This document shows, piece after piece, positions 33,511-45,217 of a DNA stretch of 64,000 nt. Positions within the stretch are counted from its first letter, which is position 1; every line of letters starts with the position of its first letter. A program made the position numbers and the translations under genes. The notes under the pieces are model-generated. The model was not told the origin of the DNA, ran no database searches, and worked only from the letters and a program-made list of their open reading frames with translations. Where the stretch lies: contig JBFWLW010000007.1 in the NCBI GenBank assembly GCA_050251945.1, positions 32,001 through 96,000 of the forward strand. Reading direction: 5' to 3'. This stretch comes from Deferribacterales bacterium (GTDB taxonomy: Bacteria > Chrysiogenota > Deferribacteres > Deferribacterales > Geovibrionaceae).

Positions 33511-33521
33511 AGCTACCTCAC

Positions 33522-33594
33522 GCGGGTATAGCTCAGTTGGTAGAGCGCGACCTTGCCAAGGTTGAGGTCACCGGTTCGAGTCCGGCTACCCGCT
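33522..33594 (+). tRNA. tRNA-Gly(GCC), CCA not encoded
   Basis: Cloverleaf; anticodon loop TTGCCAA; GGTTCGAGTCC T arm. Confidence 0.95.
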
Positions 33595-33641
33595 TTTTCA
33601 TAAGAGACCGGTTCTTTTTTACCGGTCTTTTTTTCCTTTAA

Positions 33642-33715
33642 GGCGACGTGGCCGAGTGGTTAGGCATCGGACTGCAAATCCGCGTACCCCAGTTCGATTC
33701 TGGGCGTCGCCTCCA
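33642..33715 (+). tRNA. tRNA-Cys(GCA) with encoded CCA
   Basis: GGCGACG/CGTCGCC acceptor stem; CTGCAAA anticodon loop; U73. Confidence 0.95.
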
Positions 33716-33847
33716 AACTTCTATTTTATAAATCATCTAAATGTCGTCATCTTAATACCCATAATTTATGTAGTTTTAATTCTTCTTATTTGTTAATCTA
33801 TAAGAATAATGTGATTATTTTCACATAATATGCATTTAGTATGATTT

Positions 33848-36172
33848 ATGGAGAGTGTTATGACACGTTCTGAGTGGCTTGGAATAATTACTACAGATAT
33901 CAGTAAGTTAAAAAATGAAGCTAACGAGAGAAAAAAAACGTGGAAAGAACTTTCAATATCAAGGATGGCTTTAGAAGAGTATCAAGGAAGAGGATGGTCG
34001 ATCGTTAGAGAACTTAAAAGAATCGTTAGAGTGAGAAAACTATGGGAACATGATGAAAGACTTGAAAATCGTGTTTGGTATTTACTTTTTTTGCTTGGTT
34101 TTTCAGAAATGAGTTTGGGAAGAAATTTTGAAGTAACAATTAAAAAAAGAGACGCTGAAAGCTATAGGAAACAAATCGACGTGTTAGCTAAAGATGATGA
34201 GACCGTTGTTATTGCAGAATGTAAGTCTTCAGATTCTATATCAAAAAATAGTCTTCAAAAAGACATTGAAGAATATGAAAATTTAAAAGGAGCCATTGCT
34301 AATGCTGTGAATAAGCATTATGGAAATACAAAAAAACTGAAAATATTATGGCTGTTTGTAACTAATAATTTTGCTTGGTCAGATACAGACAAAAAGAGGG
34401 CAAATGATGCGAATATTCATGTCGTCACAGAAAAAGAACTCAGATACTATTTACAAATTGCAGATCATTTAAAGAACGCAGCACGTTTTCAATTTTTAGC
34501 TGAGTTTTTAAAAAATCAGAAAATACCCGAAATGGAGAATATTACCGTTCCTGCTGTAAAGGGAAAATTAGGAGGAAAAACTTATTATTCTTTTGTTTCG
34601 ACTCCGCGTCAGATGTTAAAAATAGTTTTTGTTAATCATCGATCCTTAAATGATCCATCTGGAGCTCCAGCTTATCAACGACTTGTAAGCAAAACGAGAC
34701 TTAAAGAAGTTGCAAAATTTATTGTTTCAGGAGGATTCTTTCCAACTAATATATTAGTTAACTTCGAAAAGAAATGTAGATTTGATGGCATAGCAAAAGA
34801 TGAAAAAACTAATGTTATATTTGGCAATTTATACTTGCCTAATCGATATAAATCAGCATGGATTATTGATGGACAGCATAGGTTGTATGGCTTTTCTCCT
34901 TTGGAAGATAAATATCTTGATCAAAATATTATGGTAATTGCATTCGAGGAGCTTAGGAAAGAAGAAGAAGCTAACTTATTTGTAACGATAAACCATGAGC
35001 AGAAATCAGTTCCAAAAACATTATTAGACGATTTAGAAGGTGAGCTTAAATGGGGATCGGATAAAGCACATGAAAGAATTGGTGCAATATGCGCTAGACT
35101 CATCGGCCTACTTAACACAGATATTGGTGAACCTTTATACGGTTGTGTTACTCAACAAGGGATGGTTCCTACAGAGAAAACTTGTTTAACTGTACCTGCT
35201 TTAAAAGAGGGACTAATTAAATCTGGACTAGTAGGTACTGTTGAAGTTAAAACGAAGGAATATCTTAAAGGTCCTTTGAGTGGTAGTGATGATAATGAAA
35301 CTCTTGATAATGCAAGAAGTTTTATAAATTCCTATTTCCAAATATTCGTCGAGGCAAACCCCAATATGTGGGAATTAGGGCGAAAAGGTTATATTTGTTC
35401 AAATGTGTCTTTACAAGCACATTTTTTATTAATCAAAGAATCTATATCTTATATTAAAGATAAGGATAATCCAAACATTGATGATGTATCTGTTGAAGAA
35501 TTATTTGATAAGTTAGTCAAATTTATATCACCAATTCTAGAATGGTTTCATTTAGCTGATTTAAAAATGTTAGAATCAAATTTTAAGGTACAGTATGGAG
35601 CAGGAGGTCCAAAAGAGTATTTTTATAGATTGTCAGAAATATTACGCAAAACACACCACAATTTTAATCCATGCGGTTTTGATGAGTGGTTAGAAGAACA
35701 ATCAGAAGAGTTAGTTAGCGAAGCTAACAGAAAGATAAAAGAATTGAATATAAAAGTTCAAAAAACCATATTTGATATTCTCAGAGAAACTTATGGCGAT
35801 GAAAATGACGCTTATTGGGATAAAGGTATCAAAGATAAAGAAATTAAAGCTGGTGCCTATAAAAAATCTCTTGAGGATTCAATGGAAGAGAGATTACCAC
35901 TTGAAAATTATCTAGAATTTATTGAGTATAAGAAAATTGTTGAAAATAAAGACCATTGGTTACTATTCAAACAATACTTTAATATTCCAGAAAAAGGAGA
36001 AAAAGGAATATCGAAAAATTTAAAATGGATGGATAGAATCAATGAACTCCGAAGAATTCCAGCTCATCCTACTGAAAAAAGGCAGTACAAATCTAAAGAT
36101 TTTGAATATATCAATTACATATACACAAATTTTATGAGAATGATATCAGAACGAGAGAAGATTAATGATTAA
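33848..36172 (+). CDS. DGQHR-domain protein with N-terminal PD-(D/E)xK nuclease-like and C-terminal HEPN-like domains
   Basis: QIDVLA…IAECK; YQRL, IIDGQHRL, FVTINHEQK; NELRRIPAH (Rx4H); AT-rich. Confidence 0.8.
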   Translation: MESVMTRSEWLGIITTDISKLKNEANERKKTWKELSISRMALEEYQGRGWSIVRELKRIVRVRKLWEHDERLENRVWYLLFLLGFSEMSLGRNFEVTIKKRDAESYRKQIDVLAKDDETVVIAECKSSDSISKNSLQKDIEEYENLKGAIANAVNKHYGNTKKLKILWLFVTNNFAWSDTDKKRANDANIHVVTEKELRYYLQIADHLKNAARFQFLAEFLKNQKIPEMENITVPAVKGKLGGKTYYSFVSTPRQMLKIVFVNHRSLNDPSGAPAYQRLVSKTRLKEVAKFIVSGGFFPTNILVNFEKKCRFDGIAKDEKTNVIFGNLYLPNRYKSAWIIDGQHRLYGFSPLEDKYLDQNIMVIAFEELRKEEEANLFVTINHEQKSVPKTLLDDLEGELKWGSDKAHERIGAICARLIGLLNTDIGEPLYGCVTQQGMVPTEKTCLTVPALKEGLIKSGLVGTVEVKTKEYLKGPLSGSDDNETLDNARSFINSYFQIFVEANPNMWELGRKGYICSNVSLQAHFLLIKESISYIKDKDNPNIDDVSVEELFDKLVKFISPILEWFHLADLKMLESNFKVQYGAGGPKEYFYRLSEILRKTHHNFNPCGFDEWLEEQSEELVSEANRKIKELNIKVQKTIFDILRETYGDENDAYWDKGIKDKEIKAGAYKKSLEDSMEERLPLENYLEFIEYKKIVENKDHWLLFKQYFNIPEKGEKGISKNLKWMDRINELRRIPAHPTEKRQYKSKDFEYINYIYTNFMRMISEREKIND

Positions 36173-36986
36173 TAATAAAGATGTTTCTCCTTTTCTCCGT
36201 TGGGCAGGAGGGAAGCGTTGGTTGGTATTCAATAATTCAAGTATATTTAATATAAATTACAAAAAATATATCGAACCTTTTTTAGGTAGTGCTTCTGTCT
36301 TCTTTTTTTGTAATCCTATGCAATCAGTATTGTCTGACAAAAATAAAGATCTAATTGATGTTTACAGGGCAATAAAGCAAGATTGGAAAAAAGTTATTTC
36401 TCTATTAAATTATTATAATATAAAACATTCAAAAGATTTTTATTATACGGAAAGATCTGTTGATTACAAAGATTTGTTTTTAAAAGCGGCTCAATTTATT
36501 TATTTGAATCGGACTTGCTGGAATGGTTTATATCGTGTTAATAATGCTGGAAAGTTTAATGTTCCTATTGGAACAAAACAAACAGTTATAACTAAAGGGG
36601 ATAAGTTTGAGCTTATTTCACAGCGTTTAGCCAACGCATTGCTGATTGATGGAGATTTTGAGAGTGTCATTGATAATGCAGAAGAAGACGATTTGATTTT
36701 CATTGATCCGCCATATACTGTCAATCATAACAAAAATGGTTTTCTAAAATATAATGAAAAAATATTCAGTTGGCAGGATCAATTGAGATTATCAAATTGT
36801 GTTAAAAGAGCAAAAGAAAGGGGGGTGAAAATTATTTTGACAAACGCCAACCATTCTTCAATTGTTGAGTTATATGAAGTAGGCTTTTCCTTGAGAGAAG
36901 TAAGCAGAGCAAGTGTTTTGGCTGGCAATGCAAAATATCGTGGAAAAGTTACAGAGCTGATTATAACAGCTAATATCAATGTCTAG
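36165..36986 (+). CDS. Dam/D12-class N6-adenine DNA methyltransferase
   Basis: WAGGKRW, EPFLGSASV, NGLYRVN, FNVPIG, DPPY. Confidence 0.92.
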   Translation: MINNKDVSPFLRWAGGKRWLVFNNSSIFNINYKKYIEPFLGSASVFFFCNPMQSVLSDKNKDLIDVYRAIKQDWKKVISLLNYYNIKHSKDFYYTERSVDYKDLFLKAAQFIYLNRTCWNGLYRVNNAGKFNVPIGTKQTVITKGDKFELISQRLANALLIDGDFESVIDNAEEDDLIFIDPPYTVNHNKNGFLKYNEKIFSWQDQLRLSNCVKRAKERGVKIILTNANHSSIVELYEVGFSLREVSRASVLAGNAKYRGKVTELIITANINV

Positions 36987-36990
36987 CTTT

Positions 36991-38166
36991 TTACCGCTCC
37001 ATCGTCACCACACCGTCGGAAAAGTGAATATATTCCGGTATGAAAGTAACGGGTTTATCCGGTGTTTCGGGTATTAAGCCCTGATCTTCCAACGCATTTC
37101 TTACCTTCGCCGCGTTTGCGTAAAGTTCGTCATTTTCATTATTGGAAATGAACGTGATACTTCCGCTGCCGTCCTTCATAGTAACTGTCAGTTCTTTGTA
37201 TCCTGTGTTTTCATTAACTGATTCAAGGATATCCACCTCGTCTTTGGAAATGCTTCGCATGTCTAGGATAGTGTCCTGATTTGCAATGTTCACTATGTCG
37301 TGTCCGTCGCCTTTTTCGTATTGAATGATGTTTGCGCTTCCGCTGTAATCATCAAGCCGCAAAGTTGATATCATATTTATTATGTCGTTGCCTGTGCCGC
37401 CTGAAATTATGCCTGCACCGTTTATTATATCGTTGCCTTCGTCGCCCTTAATGAGACCGGAACCCCTGATTATATCATCCCCGGTGCCGCCGGATATCGT
37501 TCCGTATCCGCTTATGGTGTCGTCTCCTTCACCTCCGCGTACAATACCGGAACCATTAATTATGTCGTCTCCGTCTCCGCCGTCGATAATTCCTGCGCCT
37601 CTTATTATGTCGTCGCCTGTACCTCCGTCAATAATGGACTGTTGGCTCCTCATGATTATTGTGTCATTGCCCTCTCCGCCATCTACATATGATTTCGGTG
37701 TATTATCATGCAAAGGCACTTCCCAAGGTTCCAGAACACGAAGATTAAAGCTCATATTATTGATGATTATCTCGTCGTTTCCGTCGCCGCCGTTTACCGT
37801 AACGTTCTTTGCATGAACAATATTTATAGTATCGTCTCCCTCGCCGCCGTCCACGGACGAGTTGCGGATGTTGGAGAGATAAAAGCCGTCGTCACCCTTA
37901 CCGCCGTTCAGCTTTGAATCAATAAGGTCCTTTGCGCGTATCTCGTCGTTTCCGTCGCTGCCATCAACAACAATAGTTTCGTAATTTGCTTTCATCTTCT
38001 GCATTGCGGCTATCTCAACCTTGTCCACAATCTCACGTACAGTGCGCATCATATCGGTTTCAATACCCACAGACTGCATCAGGTTGGCAGATATCTTCCT
38101 GTTGTTTGTCTGCTGGATTTCCGGTTGATTCACATGGTTGAAGATTTCAGAACCTGATATTTTCAT
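36991..38166 (-). CDS. Ca2+-binding GGxGxD (RTX-like) repeat protein
   Basis: About 10 GGxGxD repeats; C-terminal GDGHDIV…IHFSDG; start MKISG at 38166. Confidence 0.8.
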   Translation of the reverse strand: MKISGSEIFNHVNQPEIQQTNNRKISANLMQSVGIETDMMRTVREIVDKVEIAAMQKMKANYETIVVDGSDGNDEIRAKDLIDSKLNGGKGDDGFYLSNIRNSSVDGGEGDDTINIVHAKNVTVNGGDGNDEIIINNMSFNLRVLEPWEVPLHDNTPKSYVDGGEGNDTIIMRSQQSIIDGGTGDDIIRGAGIIDGGDGDDIINGSGIVRGGEGDDTISGYGTISGGTGDDIIRGSGLIKGDEGNDIINGAGIISGGTGNDIINMISTLRLDDYSGSANIIQYEKGDGHDIVNIANQDTILDMRSISKDEVDILESVNENTGYKELTVTMKDGSGSITFISNNENDELYANAAKVRNALEDQGLIPETPDKPVTFIPEYIHFSDGVVTMER

Positions 38167-38373
38167 AGGAAGCCTCAATGTGTAGAAATTGTGAAGATAT
38201 AATGGATGTATCGAACACATGTTGGTTTCCTTAAGATAAATCAGTATGAGGACTGCAATCAATTATACAGTGTTACAGGTTTGGGAACGGTTGATATGTC
38301 AGGGTAAGAGCCGCGCGGTTTTTTGCTTCATAAGCGGGAGTTTAAGAATCTGATGAAATAATTAAAAATGTTG

Positions 38374-38402: not shown

Positions 38403-38414
38403 AATACCTCGCCC

Positions 38415-38487
38415 GCGGGTATAGCTCAGTTGGTAGAGCGCGACCTTGCCAAGGTTGAGGTCACCGGTTCGAGTCCGGCTACCCGCT
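38415..38487 (+). tRNA. tRNA-Gly(GCC), identical to 33522-33594
   Basis: 73/73 identity to the first copy. Confidence 0.95.
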
Positions 38488-38492
38488 CTTTC

Positions 38493-38894
38493 TTAAAACC
38501 TGTCTTTATGGCAGGTTTTTTTTGTCTCATCTTCACAATCAAACGCATCTGCAATAGCTTTCACAACGTTATGGTGAATCGGTCTGTCTCTTTCTTTCAT
38601 ATGTCGATGGTTAATTATCAATCTTTTTATCTGATCGTTGAAATTGTCATTGTCAATTGTCGATATTTCTGGAAAAAAAGAAATGATAGAGCAATTAAGT
38701 GCGTGCGCAATACGTTCAAGACTGATTATTGTCAGGTTGCTTTTGCCGCATTCAATCTCAGATATTGTCGTTGTGTGCAGGTCTGCCATTTCTGCAAGCT
38801 TTTCCTGTGAATACCCTTTGCGTTTTCTGAGCATTCTGACAGTCTCCCCGATTGACGTTAAAAGAGTTGAGTTTTGTATATTTTGTTTGCTCAT
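38493..38894 (-). CDS. XRE-family HTH regulator (resembles RM controller proteins)
   Basis: LRKRKGYSQEKLAEMADLHTTTISEIECGKSN. Confidence 0.85.
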   Translation of the reverse strand: MSKQNIQNSTLLTSIGETVRMLRKRKGYSQEKLAEMADLHTTTISEIECGKSNLTIISLERIAHALNCSIISFFPEISTIDNDNFNDQIKRLIINHRHMKERDRPIHHNVVKAIADAFDCEDETKKTCHKDRF

Positions 38895-42661: not shown

Positions 42662-45217
42662 ATGGGACATAAAATTTTAAGTGAATTAAAAAATAAAAAA
42701 AGAAGTGTAAATGATTTAGCTCGTTTTATCAAAACTCGTACTGATGATAATCCAAACTATAGTATTCTTTTAGGTGCAGGTTGTTCGGTTAGTTCAGGTA
42801 TCAACCCTGCCAGCAATTTAATATCAAGCTGGAGGAGTGATATTTATTTGGAATTAAGTCTGGCAAATAAATATTTTGAGGTTGATGCTATTAAATATTT
42901 GCAAGAAAATGAATCTAGTTGGTACGATAAAAGATATGAATATTCATCATTGTTTGAAAAAAAATATGATTTACCTCGCCAGCGAAGAATGTTCATTGAA
43001 TCTCAAGTTGAAGATAAAGCACCTGCTTTAGGTTATGCTTACTTAATAAGTTTAGTTGATTCAGGTTATTTTAAGACACTTTTTACAACAAATTTCGATG
43101 ATTTAATTAATGAAGCATTTTATAAGTTTTCTGACAAACGACCAATTGTTTGTGCTCATGATTCATCAGTAAATAGTATTACTGTTACATCTTCGAGACC
43201 TAAAGTTATTAAACTTCATGGTGATTATCTATTTGATGATATAAAGAGTACTGTTCGTGAAACTGAATCATTAGAAGAAAATATGAAAAATAAATTTACA
43301 GAGTTCTGTAAAGATTATGGATTGATTATTATTGGTTATAGTGGGAATGATCGTTCAATAATGGATGTATTGCAGTATTTATTGAAGCAGGATGAATATT
43401 TCAAACACGGTATATATTGGTGCTTTCGTGAAAATGACGAAATAAATGAAGATGTGCGTAAATTATTGTGGAAAGAAAAAGTTTATTATGTAGAAATTGA
43501 TGGGTTCGATGAATTAATGGCTGAATTACATAGTTTGTTAAAACCAAAAATCTTACCAATTGATACAAGTATGCTCTCTGATAAATCAACAAAAATGATA
43601 CAAGTGTTGTCTGCTAATGAACAATTGTTAGCTTCTGGTTCGAGAATAATAAAAGAAGATATTAAAAAATTAAAAGCTCTAAATGTTGATAGGGCTTTTA
43701 GTGACATTATAGCGATTTTTTCAGATAACGAATCTGAAACATCTTATAAAAGGCAAAATAAAGTTGGAAAGATGAGTGCTTTCAGATTATTTAAAATTCA
43801 AGAAAAGATTAGTAGTGGATTTTACGATGACGCATTATCAGAAATCGACAACGAATTGACAAAAGCTGGGAATGACAGACAGTTTATAAAAGAGCTGAAT
43901 GTGCAAAAAGCTAAATGTTTTAATCTTATGGGGAAGAGTGATGAAGCGATTAAATGTTATAATTCGTTGATAAGTTCTGATAAGAATGATGTTTCAAATT
44001 ACTTGTCAATTATTAACCTTAAAGATAATATTTTAGATAAGAGGGATTATATTGATAGGCTAATAGAGGTTGCTCCATACAATGCAAATGCATATGAAAT
44101 TAAGGCAACAATCGAAGATGAAATAAGAGAAGATACTTTTTTTGATACGAAACTAAATGAAGAACAGATTATCGCTCTATATGATAGAAGTTTAGAAATA
44201 GAACCCTCTTTGGACAACATTTCTTGGGAAAAGAAATATTTTATTTTAGAAAAACATGAAAATAAGAATTCTGAAAAACTTAAAGAATACATTGAGGATA
44301 TGAAAAAAAAGAATCCTTACCACATAAGTGTCATAATTTTAAATTTGAATTTATTGAAAAAGAATGAAGCAAACTTTTTTGATATTTCTGATTATGTCAA
44401 AAATGTTATCAAATATCACAAATATATAGACCAGTATTATATTTATCTAAAGTTTTCCGAACTCCTTTTGTCAATTAATAAAGAAAATGAAGTGTTTCGC
44501 ATTTTAACATATATTGAAGAGAATTTTGATTTAGATGATAGTTACTATTTACTTAACGCTAGAGCTATTTTTAATGTAAGAGGAGATATATACGATGCGG
44601 AAGTGCAATTTAAAAGAGCAATAGAATATAATAATTCTTTAAATAATAATCGAATGTTGCTAGAATTTTATTTTAATATTGATGCGCTCAAGAAAATAGA
44701 AGAGTTATTAGCATCTAACCCAAAACTATTGGATGAGGCTGTAAAGTATGATTTAGCAATGTTGAAAACTGAATACGATGAAGCAATTAAGATAGTTGAT
44801 TCGTTAATTATTAAATTTCCATACGATTTAAGTTATGTCATAAAGAAATCATACACATTATTGAAAGCAGAAAAATACAAAGAAACTGAAGAATATTTGA
44901 AGCCATATATCAATAATTCATCGATTAAAGAAATAGGTGTTTTTGTAAACTACTCCTATGCTAAAAAGAAGCAAAGTGATTCATATAATAAAAAGAGAGT
45001 TGAGATGGAAATCACTAATCACTCTGAGTATGATACTAAGGCTGCACTTTACGCATTATTAGACAGGCGAAGTGATGCAATTGACATGTTAGAAAAACTT
45101 TATTTAAATAAACCATTTACAATATGTTACAATGCATTTGATTGGGTTATATTTAAGGATTATATATCTGATAAACGATTTGTTGAGTTAAAAAATAAAC
45201 TAAAATATTTTGATTAA
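42662..45217 (+). CDS. SIR2-like (SIR2_2) domain protein with long TPR-like C-terminus; putative anti-phage protein
   Basis: LLGAGCS, TTNFDDL, KLHGD, IGYSGND; helical repeats; very AT-rich. Confidence 0.82.
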   Translation: MGHKILSELKNKKRSVNDLARFIKTRTDDNPNYSILLGAGCSVSSGINPASNLISSWRSDIYLELSLANKYFEVDAIKYLQENESSWYDKRYEYSSLFEKKYDLPRQRRMFIESQVEDKAPALGYAYLISLVDSGYFKTLFTTNFDDLINEAFYKFSDKRPIVCAHDSSVNSITVTSSRPKVIKLHGDYLFDDIKSTVRETESLEENMKNKFTEFCKDYGLIIIGYSGNDRSIMDVLQYLLKQDEYFKHGIYWCFRENDEINEDVRKLLWKEKVYYVEIDGFDELMAELHSLLKPKILPIDTSMLSDKSTKMIQVLSANEQLLASGSRIIKEDIKKLKALNVDRAFSDIIAIFSDNESETSYKRQNKVGKMSAFRLFKIQEKISSGFYDDALSEIDNELTKAGNDRQFIKELNVQKAKCFNLMGKSDEAIKCYNSLISSDKNDVSNYLSIINLKDNILDKRDYIDRLIEVAPYNANAYEIKATIEDEIREDTFFDTKLNEEQIIALYDRSLEIEPSLDNISWEKKYFILEKHENKNSEKLKEYIEDMKKKNPYHISVIILNLNLLKKNEANFFDISDYVKNVIKYHKYIDQYYIYLKFSELLLSINKENEVFRILTYIEENFDLDDSYYLLNARAIFNVRGDIYDAEVQFKRAIEYNNSLNNNRMLLEFYFNIDALKKIEELLASNPKLLDEAVKYDLAMLKTEYDEAIKIVDSLIIKFPYDLSYVIKKSYTLLKAEKYKETEEYLKPYINNSSIKEIGVFVNYSYAKKKQSDSYNKKRVEMEITNHSEYDTKAALYALLDRRSDAIDMLEKLYLNKPFTICYNAFDWVIFKDYISDKRFVELKNKLKYFD

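Follow-up and report, generated by a model that had tools for sequence, protein, structure and literature searches.

DGQHR domains are described in general as fused to HNH, PD-(D/E)xK and HEPN domains (accessible text of PMC3632139). In SspE, a DGQQR domain with a Y30-Q31-R32 patch couples the sensing of a DNA mark to a fused nickase, according to the accessible part of PMC9646914. A relative of the protein studied here, Saro_3948, is listed in Table 1 of Anantharaman et al. (2013; PMC3710099) in a one-line entry as a Swt1-like HEPN domain fused to ParB. In the accessible sections of that paper, the HEPN domain of Saro_3948 is rated as mostly active, PrrC-like back-up roles are predicted for HEPN proteins linked to restriction-modification (R-M), and the tabulated "ParB nuclease plus DNA methylase operon" belongs to a different HEPN family, MAE_28990. 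Here, a stretch of 64,000 nucleotides (nt) from a Deferribacterales bacterium (contig JBFWLW010000007.1, positions 32,001 to 96,000; hereafter the window) was analyzed, in which two adjoining genes next to a tRNA-Cys gene encode a predicted nuclease-DGQHR-HEPN fusion protein (gene 1) and an adenine methyltransferase of the Dam family (gene 2). On balance, we lean towards reading the pair as a mobile two-gene, R-M-like anti-invader system, in which methylation would mark self, the DGQHR domain would gate the nuclease and the HEPN domain would back it up. This reading draws on the architecture, the intact motifs, the near-obligate pairing with a predicted S-adenosylmethionine (SAM)-dependent enzyme, the co-phylogeny and the horizontal mobility of the cassette; its activity is a prediction.

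The three domains assigned to gene 1 in the original prediction (nuclease, DGQHR and HEPN) were backed by the predicted structure and by profile matches. The AlphaFold2 model (mean predicted local distance difference test (pLDDT) score 84.4) was aligned to 48,161 solved chains using VIA-align. Residues 68-220 resembled PD-(D/E)xK nucleases, with AF1548 (Z 12.1, root-mean-square deviation (rmsd) 2.1, 114 aligned residues), Card1 (Z 9.7), Can2 (Z 9.3) and the NucS-type structure 2vld (Z 8.1) among the matches. Residues 239-386 resembled the ParB-like PadC (Z 8.0, rmsd 2.5, 99 aligned), and residues 619-774 the HEPN folds of AbiF (Z 8.2, rmsd 3.6, 133 aligned) and of the Swt1 C-terminal domain (Z 6.5). 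Since the Z-scores for the ParB and HEPN folds are middling, both domain calls lean on profiles too. The NCBIfam 20.0 model DGQHR TIGR03187 matched gene 1 with 145.5 bits (cut-off 58.85), the DndB and DpdB equivalogs remained far below their cut-offs (27 vs. 328 and 61 vs. 300, respectively), as did DGQHR_dnd_1, and the sole match in PADLOC-DB 2.0.0 was DpdB with 66 bits. PF14072 was found in 51 of 53 gene 1 relatives and HEPN_Swt1 matched below the cut-off in 10 of these 53 (scanned out of 106 locus anchors, i.e., gene 1 homologues); ESM Atlas clusters resembling gene 1 bear DndB, NERD and HEPN_Swt1. The window's gene 1 protein itself had no significant match in Pfam, no match to a P-loop family, the middle domain being ParB-like, and no relative in the PDB at the sequence level.

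Counted from the open reading frame (ORF) start at 33848, the YQR motif was located at residues 276-278, DGQHR at 341-345, FxxIN at 378-382 and RRIPAH at 735-740, so that all motifs named before for the DGQHR domain and the C-terminus are present in the translation. The spacing of the nuclease motif had been given as ID-x11-ECK and has to be corrected to ID-x12-ECK (D111..E124-C-K126). The length of 774 amino acids (aa) holds for the ORF from 33848; a start at 33860 (770 aa) is probable, because a GGAG lies 6 nt upstream and a database copy comprises 770 aa. Motif conservation was determined in 127 full-length sequences, each representing a cluster at 50% identity (127 of 150 listed, 24-48% identical). 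YQR and DGQHR were found in 100%, D111, E124 and K126 in 96%, 87% and 74%, and R735 and H740 in 79% and 75% of the sequences, respectively. The expectation that the motifs are kept in homologues was thus borne out, and with this conservation they are not due to chance. Among the 127 full-length locus anchors, the DGQHR-domain motifs were likewise invariant or nearly so.

Gene 2 matched PF02086 (1e-42) and TIGR00571 (215 bits), and its nearest solved relative was DpnM (151 bits). These family profiles and the catalytic DPPY motif at residues 181-184 confirmed an intact DPPY adenine methyltransferase. Across 90 linked methylases, R124, N126, N132, V133, P134 and D181-P182 were invariant, and the subfamily motif DPPYTVxHNxNGFxKY was found directly after the catalytic site. 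The Dam methylase of E. coli (EcoDam) reads GATC through K9, L122, R124 and P134; the equivalent positions in gene 2 are R12, L122, R124 and P134. The conserved DpnM/Dam-type hairpin residues suggest a GATC-like target site for gene 2. A methylome paper on Zymomonas gave no recognition site for this methylase subfamily. A complex prediction for gene 1 (residues 48-770) and the methylase reached a score of 0.00, which was counted neither for nor against binding.

The search for gene 1 homologues resulted in 1730 matches among 7999 scored candidates, and the family comprised 749 clusters at 50% identity (E <= 1e-30, fragments counted in). A locus scan with a single sequence found no loci; the loci come from alignment-led scans, the first of which yielded the best 80 of 438 genome loci and the second, with distant members, the best 80 of 530. 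After removal of duplicate contigs, the combined set held 147 loci from bacteria and archaea. Of these, 127 full-length anchors were used for the tree and 20 short or frameshifted anchors were excluded.

In the best 80 of 438 loci, the methylase was located immediately downstream in 69 and upstream in 2; four of the others lie at a contig edge, in one, the anchor is truncated and a methylase fragment lies inverted, and four have no methylase. Conservation of the pair, which had been proposed as a check, was found in 71 of the 76 evaluable close loci, where a methylase adjoins on the same strand, across many phyla. For the 127 full-length anchors, the methylase was downstream in 67 and upstream in 13, a radical-SAM and/or GHKL protein adjoined in 39, and neither was present in 8; methylase and radical SAM never occurred together (0/127). 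The eight anchors with neither partner comprise two at contig ends, two next to another D12 methylase, one next to an MT-A70 enzyme and three solo anchors. In total, 122 of 125 evaluable anchors adjoin a predicted SAM-dependent enzyme. The coupling to a Dam-family methyltransferase claimed originally therefore applies to 80 of 127 anchors, and the partner is exchangeable, with radical SAM/GHKL in 39. The methylase-linked copies retain D111 in 75 of 80, E124 and K126 each in 73 of 80, and R735/H740 of the HEPN domain in 79 of 80.

For 105 anchor-methylase pairs, including those from methylase-led loci, the tree distances of both proteins were correlated (Spearman 0.67; 0 of 999 permutations as high). 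The nearest neighbor of the anchor was within the top three of the methylase in 65 of the 105 pairs. This co-phylogeny is read from the sequences as the shared descent of one cassette, and it is no proof of binding. A chance neighborhood of the two genes was rejected on the basis of co-occurrence and co-phylogeny.

The location of the pair in an AT-rich insert abutting tRNA-Cys was borne out by the GC profile and the tRNA position, as was the 8-nt overlap of the two genes by the ORF coordinates (Table 1). The insert begins directly 3′ of tRNA-Cys (33642-33715). The GC content is 31.2% across 33720-36986 compared to 46.6% genome-wide, with a drop to 27-34% over 34000-36999. Both ORFs (33848-36172 and 36165-36986) are on the plus strand and share the sequence ATGATTAA. 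At the right border, a duplicated tRNA-Cys end or attR-like repeat was not reported in the repeat search, the listing contained no RNA holder, and the promoter scan remained at chance level (20 vs. 17.5 +/- 4.2).

Table 1. Coordinates of the two-gene cassette, the predicted domains of gene 1 and the bordering tRNA genes in the window.
Feature	Position	Strand	Remarks
tRNA-Gly(GCC)	33522..33594	+	First member of the tRNA pair bordering the insert on the left
tRNA-Cys(GCA)	33642..33715	+	3′ end is a variable site; cargo differs between genomes of the genus
AT-rich two-gene insert	33716..36990	.	31% GC; integrase gene absent
Gene 1, predicted nuclease-ParB/DGQHR-helical-HEPN fusion	33860..36172	+	770 aa if translated from the likely start, 774 aa if from 33848
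PD-(D/E)xK nuclease domain (predicted)	34043..34507	+	Residues ~66-220; E73, Q109, D111, E124, K126
ParB/Srx-fold DGQHR (DndB-like) domain	34535..35047	+	Residues ~230-400; H264, YQR, DGQHR, FxxINxxQ
Helical middle region	35060..35677	+	Residues ~405-610; DGQHR/DpdB profiles cover part
Swt1/AbiF-like HEPN domain (predicted)	35690..36169	+	Residues ~615-774; R735-x4-H740
Gene 2, D12/Dam-family N6-adenine methyltransferase, DpnM-like	36165..36986	+	273 aa; overlaps gene 1 by 8 nt

Six genomes of the same genus share the left flank as far as tRNA-Cys, and no alignment to any of 20 relatives extends over the cassette. Gene 1 was found in none of 67 other genomes of the phylum (E <= 1e-30). The cargo at the tRNA-Cys site consists of an integrase element with Type IIG, Mrr, SduA_C and PIN genes in genome G001, an OLD-like ATPase/TOPRIM gene in G002, a Schlafen gene in G004, a weak PD-(D/E)xK match in G005 and Mrr in G006; the genes in G003 are apparently metabolic. 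The 3′ site of tRNA-Cys is a hotspot of defense cargo in this genus (loci L095-L100: G001, G002, G004, G005 and G006). Two loci at this site (L097 and L100) also hold ORFs without a family match, and in G004 and G005 it carries a small two-gene pair, which we take to resemble a nucleotidyltransferase and a HEPN protein.

In 83 of 87 related pair loci, the GC content of the cassette is below that of the distal flanks (median -9.6 points). A tRNA or tmRNA is located within 1.5 kb of 10 out of 105 pair loci, so that adjacency to tRNA genes is not general. The complete pair was present in 3 of 80 methylase-led viral-contig loci. A blastn search of E. coli genomes gave no match to the cassette, which is a weak test at the DNA level only. 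Judged by its sequence and surroundings, the window copy is an intact, recently acquired and mobile cassette.

One third of the full-length gene 1 members adjoin a radical-SAM/GHKL module instead of the methylase. In a quickly built tree, at least four changes of the radical-SAM label are required on branches with good support (SH-aLRT, i.e., Shimodaira-Hasegawa-like approximate likelihood ratio, support only, without a root test), and the partner has accordingly been swapped at least twice. The model of the radical-SAM partner (pLDDT 83.3) resembled the methylthiotransferases MtaB/MiaB and cobalamin-dependent methyltransferases, among them TsrM and MgmA (E 4e-11 to 2e-9); the protein retains CxxxCxxC, and its neighbor is a GHKL ATPase. 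Among 80 radical-SAM-led loci, the fusion was found in 15, another DGQHR protein in 12 and neither in 53, and SNF2/ParB-HTH, PIN and HerA modules recur. Both writer modules are common to several effector sets, and the fusion is nearly always found with a writer. Such an asymmetry would be anticipated for a fusion that is harmful in the absence of its partner. We tentatively propose, as a possibility rather than an expectation, that one ParB-switched DNase/RNase effector was re-paired repeatedly with unrelated SAM-dependent writers (two D12 subfamilies, MT-A70 and the B12-type radical SAM with GHKL). In this case, the mark placed on DNA by the radical-SAM form would be chemically new (C-methylation or methylthiolation), and the effector would respond to the disappearance of the mark or to a halt of SAM-dependent writing and not to a particular base.

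Apart from the fusion, the two modules were observed in a number of other recurring sets. In six methylase-led loci (L259, L262, L273, L275, L277 and L282), the gene 2 methylase subfamily is followed by a HerA-like ATPase (~665 aa) and an unclassified protein of 450 aa. Six others (L169, L298, L307, L308, L311 and L320) hold a trio of a phosphoesterase, an ORC-CDC6-like ATPase and a CARF-like protein, which the methylase adjoins in five of the six. A set of methylase, 500-aa DGQHR protein and 450-aa protein without known family occurs in seven loci (L267, L270, L293, L297, L301, L314 and L418) and also on a plasmid of Zymomonas mobilis CP4. In L260, L264, L265, L268, L269, L274, L281, L288, L300, L303, L319, L329 and L419, the methylase is followed by a poorly conserved ORF of 160-215 aa and a 385-aa DGQHR protein. 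The pair of B12-type radical SAM and GHKL proteins is very widespread (L180-L258; at least 584 relatives) and recurs with a SNF2/ParB-HTH/small-protein module (38-41 loci), with PIN+GHKL (21 loci) and with HerA/DUF5131 sets; no PADLOC model matches the radical SAM or the GHKL protein.

In the R-M-like reading of the pair, gene 2 would mark an adenine at a GATC-like site in the host DNA, with the enzyme class assigned by homology. By analogy to SspE, the DGQHR domain may act as a nucleotide-binding switch that answers to the state of the bound DNA and would license the PD-(D/E)xK domain to cut unmarked DNA. The HEPN domain, in a role borrowed from PrrC, would be a second-line RNase that arrests the cell if restriction fails or if the mark or the SAM supply is attacked. 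Besides the pairing and the co-phylogeny, further observations speak for this reading: the methylase-linked copies have kept the nuclease catalytic set, the cassette is low in GC, and the tRNA-Cys site receives defense cargo. If the reading holds, the family would represent a widespread class of R-M-like immunity, in which a single chain unites restriction with a nucleotide switch and a suicide RNase. Point mutants of just two genes could then serve to test the long-standing idea that immunity and dormancy are coupled. The methylase-paired copy would also serve as a simple control for the radical-SAM sister systems, and the comparison hints at a possible new DNA modification.

Several results weigh against it. 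Gene 1 has no identifiable DNA target-recognition domain of the classical kind, and its nuclease is closer to weakly specific domains of the Card1/Can2/NucS type than to site-specific Type II enzymes. In a synonymous-codon shuffle of 105 cassettes, GATC was not under-represented, with 1239 sites against 1205 expected (ratios of 1.03 for the anchors and 1.00 for the methylases), and no palindrome stood out compared to the flanks, so that site avoidance pointed to no target of the methylase. Among 80 methylase-led loci, the fusion is present in 37 and another DGQHR protein in 22, and the remaining 21 have no DGQHR protein by profile, i.e., the methylase subfamily is shared with unrelated effectors. 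Three intact anchors (L058, L079 and L175) are solo, without an adjoining modifier. In radical-SAM-linked copies, K126 is replaced by T in 32 of 39, and R735 and H740 are kept in all 39, which argues for the RNase and not the DNase as the constant part; the K126T copies are probably those of a 33-row clade, which would make the change one event.

This distribution of residues also suits an abortive infection held in check by the methylase (a dead-man's switch or guard), in which the HEPN RNase would be the main effector and would stay off while its partner is active, i.e., while the host DNA is marked and the pools of SAM and nucleoside triphosphates (NTPs) are normal. The RNase would be triggered by a phage that inhibits the modifier, exhausts SAM or nucleotides, or brings large amounts of unmarked DNA into the cell. 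The nuclease-fold domain would then sense DNA or contribute as a non-specific co-effector, infected cells would die, and methylation would give the phage no escape. The HEPN residues are nearly invariant next to either partner, and K126 is lost in most copies next to radical SAM. The four partner types are all predicted SAM users of differing chemistry, which is easier explained if the effector monitors its partner or a state and not a particular base. Moreover, both modifier modules recur with other effectors (HerA with the 450-aa protein, SNF2/ParB-HTH, PIN and phosphoesterase/ORC-CDC6). In lactococcal AbiR, the LlaKR2I methylase is reportedly required for host protection. A precedent for a HEPN protein guarding R-M is PrrC (accessible text of PMC12707154 and PMC3632139), and in the part of a ParA preprint that is available, another trio of effector, HSP90 and radical SAM is read as toxin-antitoxin-like (10.64898/2026.10.19.760177). 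Nevertheless, the methylase-linked clade, including the window copy, retains the full nuclease catalytic set, and the cassette has no separate R-M system to guard. This explanation is the main rival of the R-M-like reading; it is considered rather unlikely, though it deserves serious attention.

An activation by the mark itself, as in SspE, appears improbable. Methylated host DNA would here stimulate the DGQHR NTPase, the freed nuclease would nick the invader regardless of sequence, and the methylase would be needed for defense itself. The invariant YQR and DGQHR match the mark-sensing patch and the NTPase motif of SspE by position (a motif match, not a structural superposition), and the nuclease is of a weakly specific type. 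On the other hand, YQR is general among DGQHR proteins, and a single pocket would need to read both N6-methyladenine and the radical-SAM product. Slightly less probable still is a selfish addiction module or a self-targeting of methylated DNA as in Ambrosia, either of which would hardly restrict invaders directly, if at all. The patchy and mobile distribution would suit any addictive cassette, and Ambrosia couples an N6 methylase to a Type IV nuclease (available text of 10.1101/2025.09.30.679545); against this, the pair has no regulator or two-component genes, and its site is occupied by other defense genes in relatives.

Further features of the window and the host genome were recorded. The tRNA-Gly(GCC) region is duplicated (33521-33603 and 38414-38496, the second tRNA copy at 38415-38488; 98% identical, 4.9 kb apart), and the two copies enclose tRNA-Cys, the cassette and a gene with RTX repeats. 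The latter (36991-38262, minus strand) lies between the cassette and the second tRNA-Gly, encodes a protein of 423 aa whose calcium-binding repeats are of the RTX type (period of 45 nt); it is common to G002, G005 and in part G004. A second AT-rich insert (42662-45217, plus strand, 26-31% GC) encodes an 851-aa protein with a SIR2-like domain (PF13289, 1e-17) and TPR, likely a stand-alone defense gene of the NADase type; PADLOC matched it only to the SIR2 parts of pAgo-associated and PDC-S65 models. In the host genome (G000), the ratio to the Markov expectation was 0.09 for GGCC (almost absent), 0.27 for CTAG and 0.53 for GATC, and two further D12 methylases are located on contig C12.

The original prediction had put forward an undescribed system. 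This stands insofar as neither PADLOC-DB 2.0.0 nor NCBIfam 20.0 gave a match to gene 1 at the system level, and it has to be restricted by the tabulated Saro_3948. The latter, confirmed by its locus tag, is 31% identical to gene 1 at 94% coverage (E 4e-105) and is a distant full-length member of the same protein family. It adjoins radical SAM/GHKL and not the methylase; its entry in the accessible text of PMC3710099 mentions no N-terminal nuclease, partner gene or experiment. No description of the gene pair was found in the available text of PMC10853773, PMC12839542, PMC3506569, PMC2292703 and 10.1101/2025.09.30.679545, and the available part of 10.64898/2026.05.05.722872 had zero term matches. 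The literature searches gave no description either, with most subscription papers and several supplements outside their scope, and it is quite possible that an earlier in silico description of the family exists.

Compared to described systems, gene 1 shares the DGQHR domain family with DndB and DpdB. The noted lack of dnd and dpd genes nearby holds genome-wide: dndC, dndD and dpdA were not found above the cut-off in the 99.97% complete genome, where gene 1 is the sole DGQHR-family gene. With the equivalog scores given above, membership in the Dnd and in the Dpd 7-deazaguanine systems was rejected. PrrC and RloC likewise combine an NTP-regulated HEPN RNase (Rx4H) with a modification system. They use an ABC ATPase switch, and the R-M system under the guard of PrrC is a separate one of Type Ic, whereas here a ParB-fold switch and a DNase are part of the same chain; since the ABC ATPase domain is missing, this membership was also rejected. 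SspE (of SspABCD-SspE) and GmrSD/BrxU resemble gene 1 in the fusion of a ParB-fold DGQ(H/Q)R NTPase to a DNase that is tied to DNA modification (accessible part of PMC9646914). Their HNH nuclease is C-terminal to the NTPase and their marks are phosphorothioate or made by the phage, whereas gene 1 has an N-terminal PD-(D/E)xK domain, a C-terminal HEPN fold with Rx4H and a methylase partner. Assignment to SspE/GmrSD was rejected because the C-terminal HNH nuclease is missing.

As in Type II R-M, an adjoining methyltransferase with intact SAM-binding and DPPY motifs and an endonuclease domain with catalytic residues were found. The likeness to DpnII-type R-M extends to the two-gene layout, the PD-(D/E)xK nuclease and DpnM as the nearest relative of gene 2. 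In contrast to the simple endonuclease of that type, the nuclease here bears DGQHR and HEPN domains, gene 2 has its own subfamily motif, and the partner is replaceable by non-homologous enzymes. The gene 1 family is thus classified, by its predicted domains and neighbors, as a widespread, unnamed and putatively R-M-like family with an exchangeable writer.

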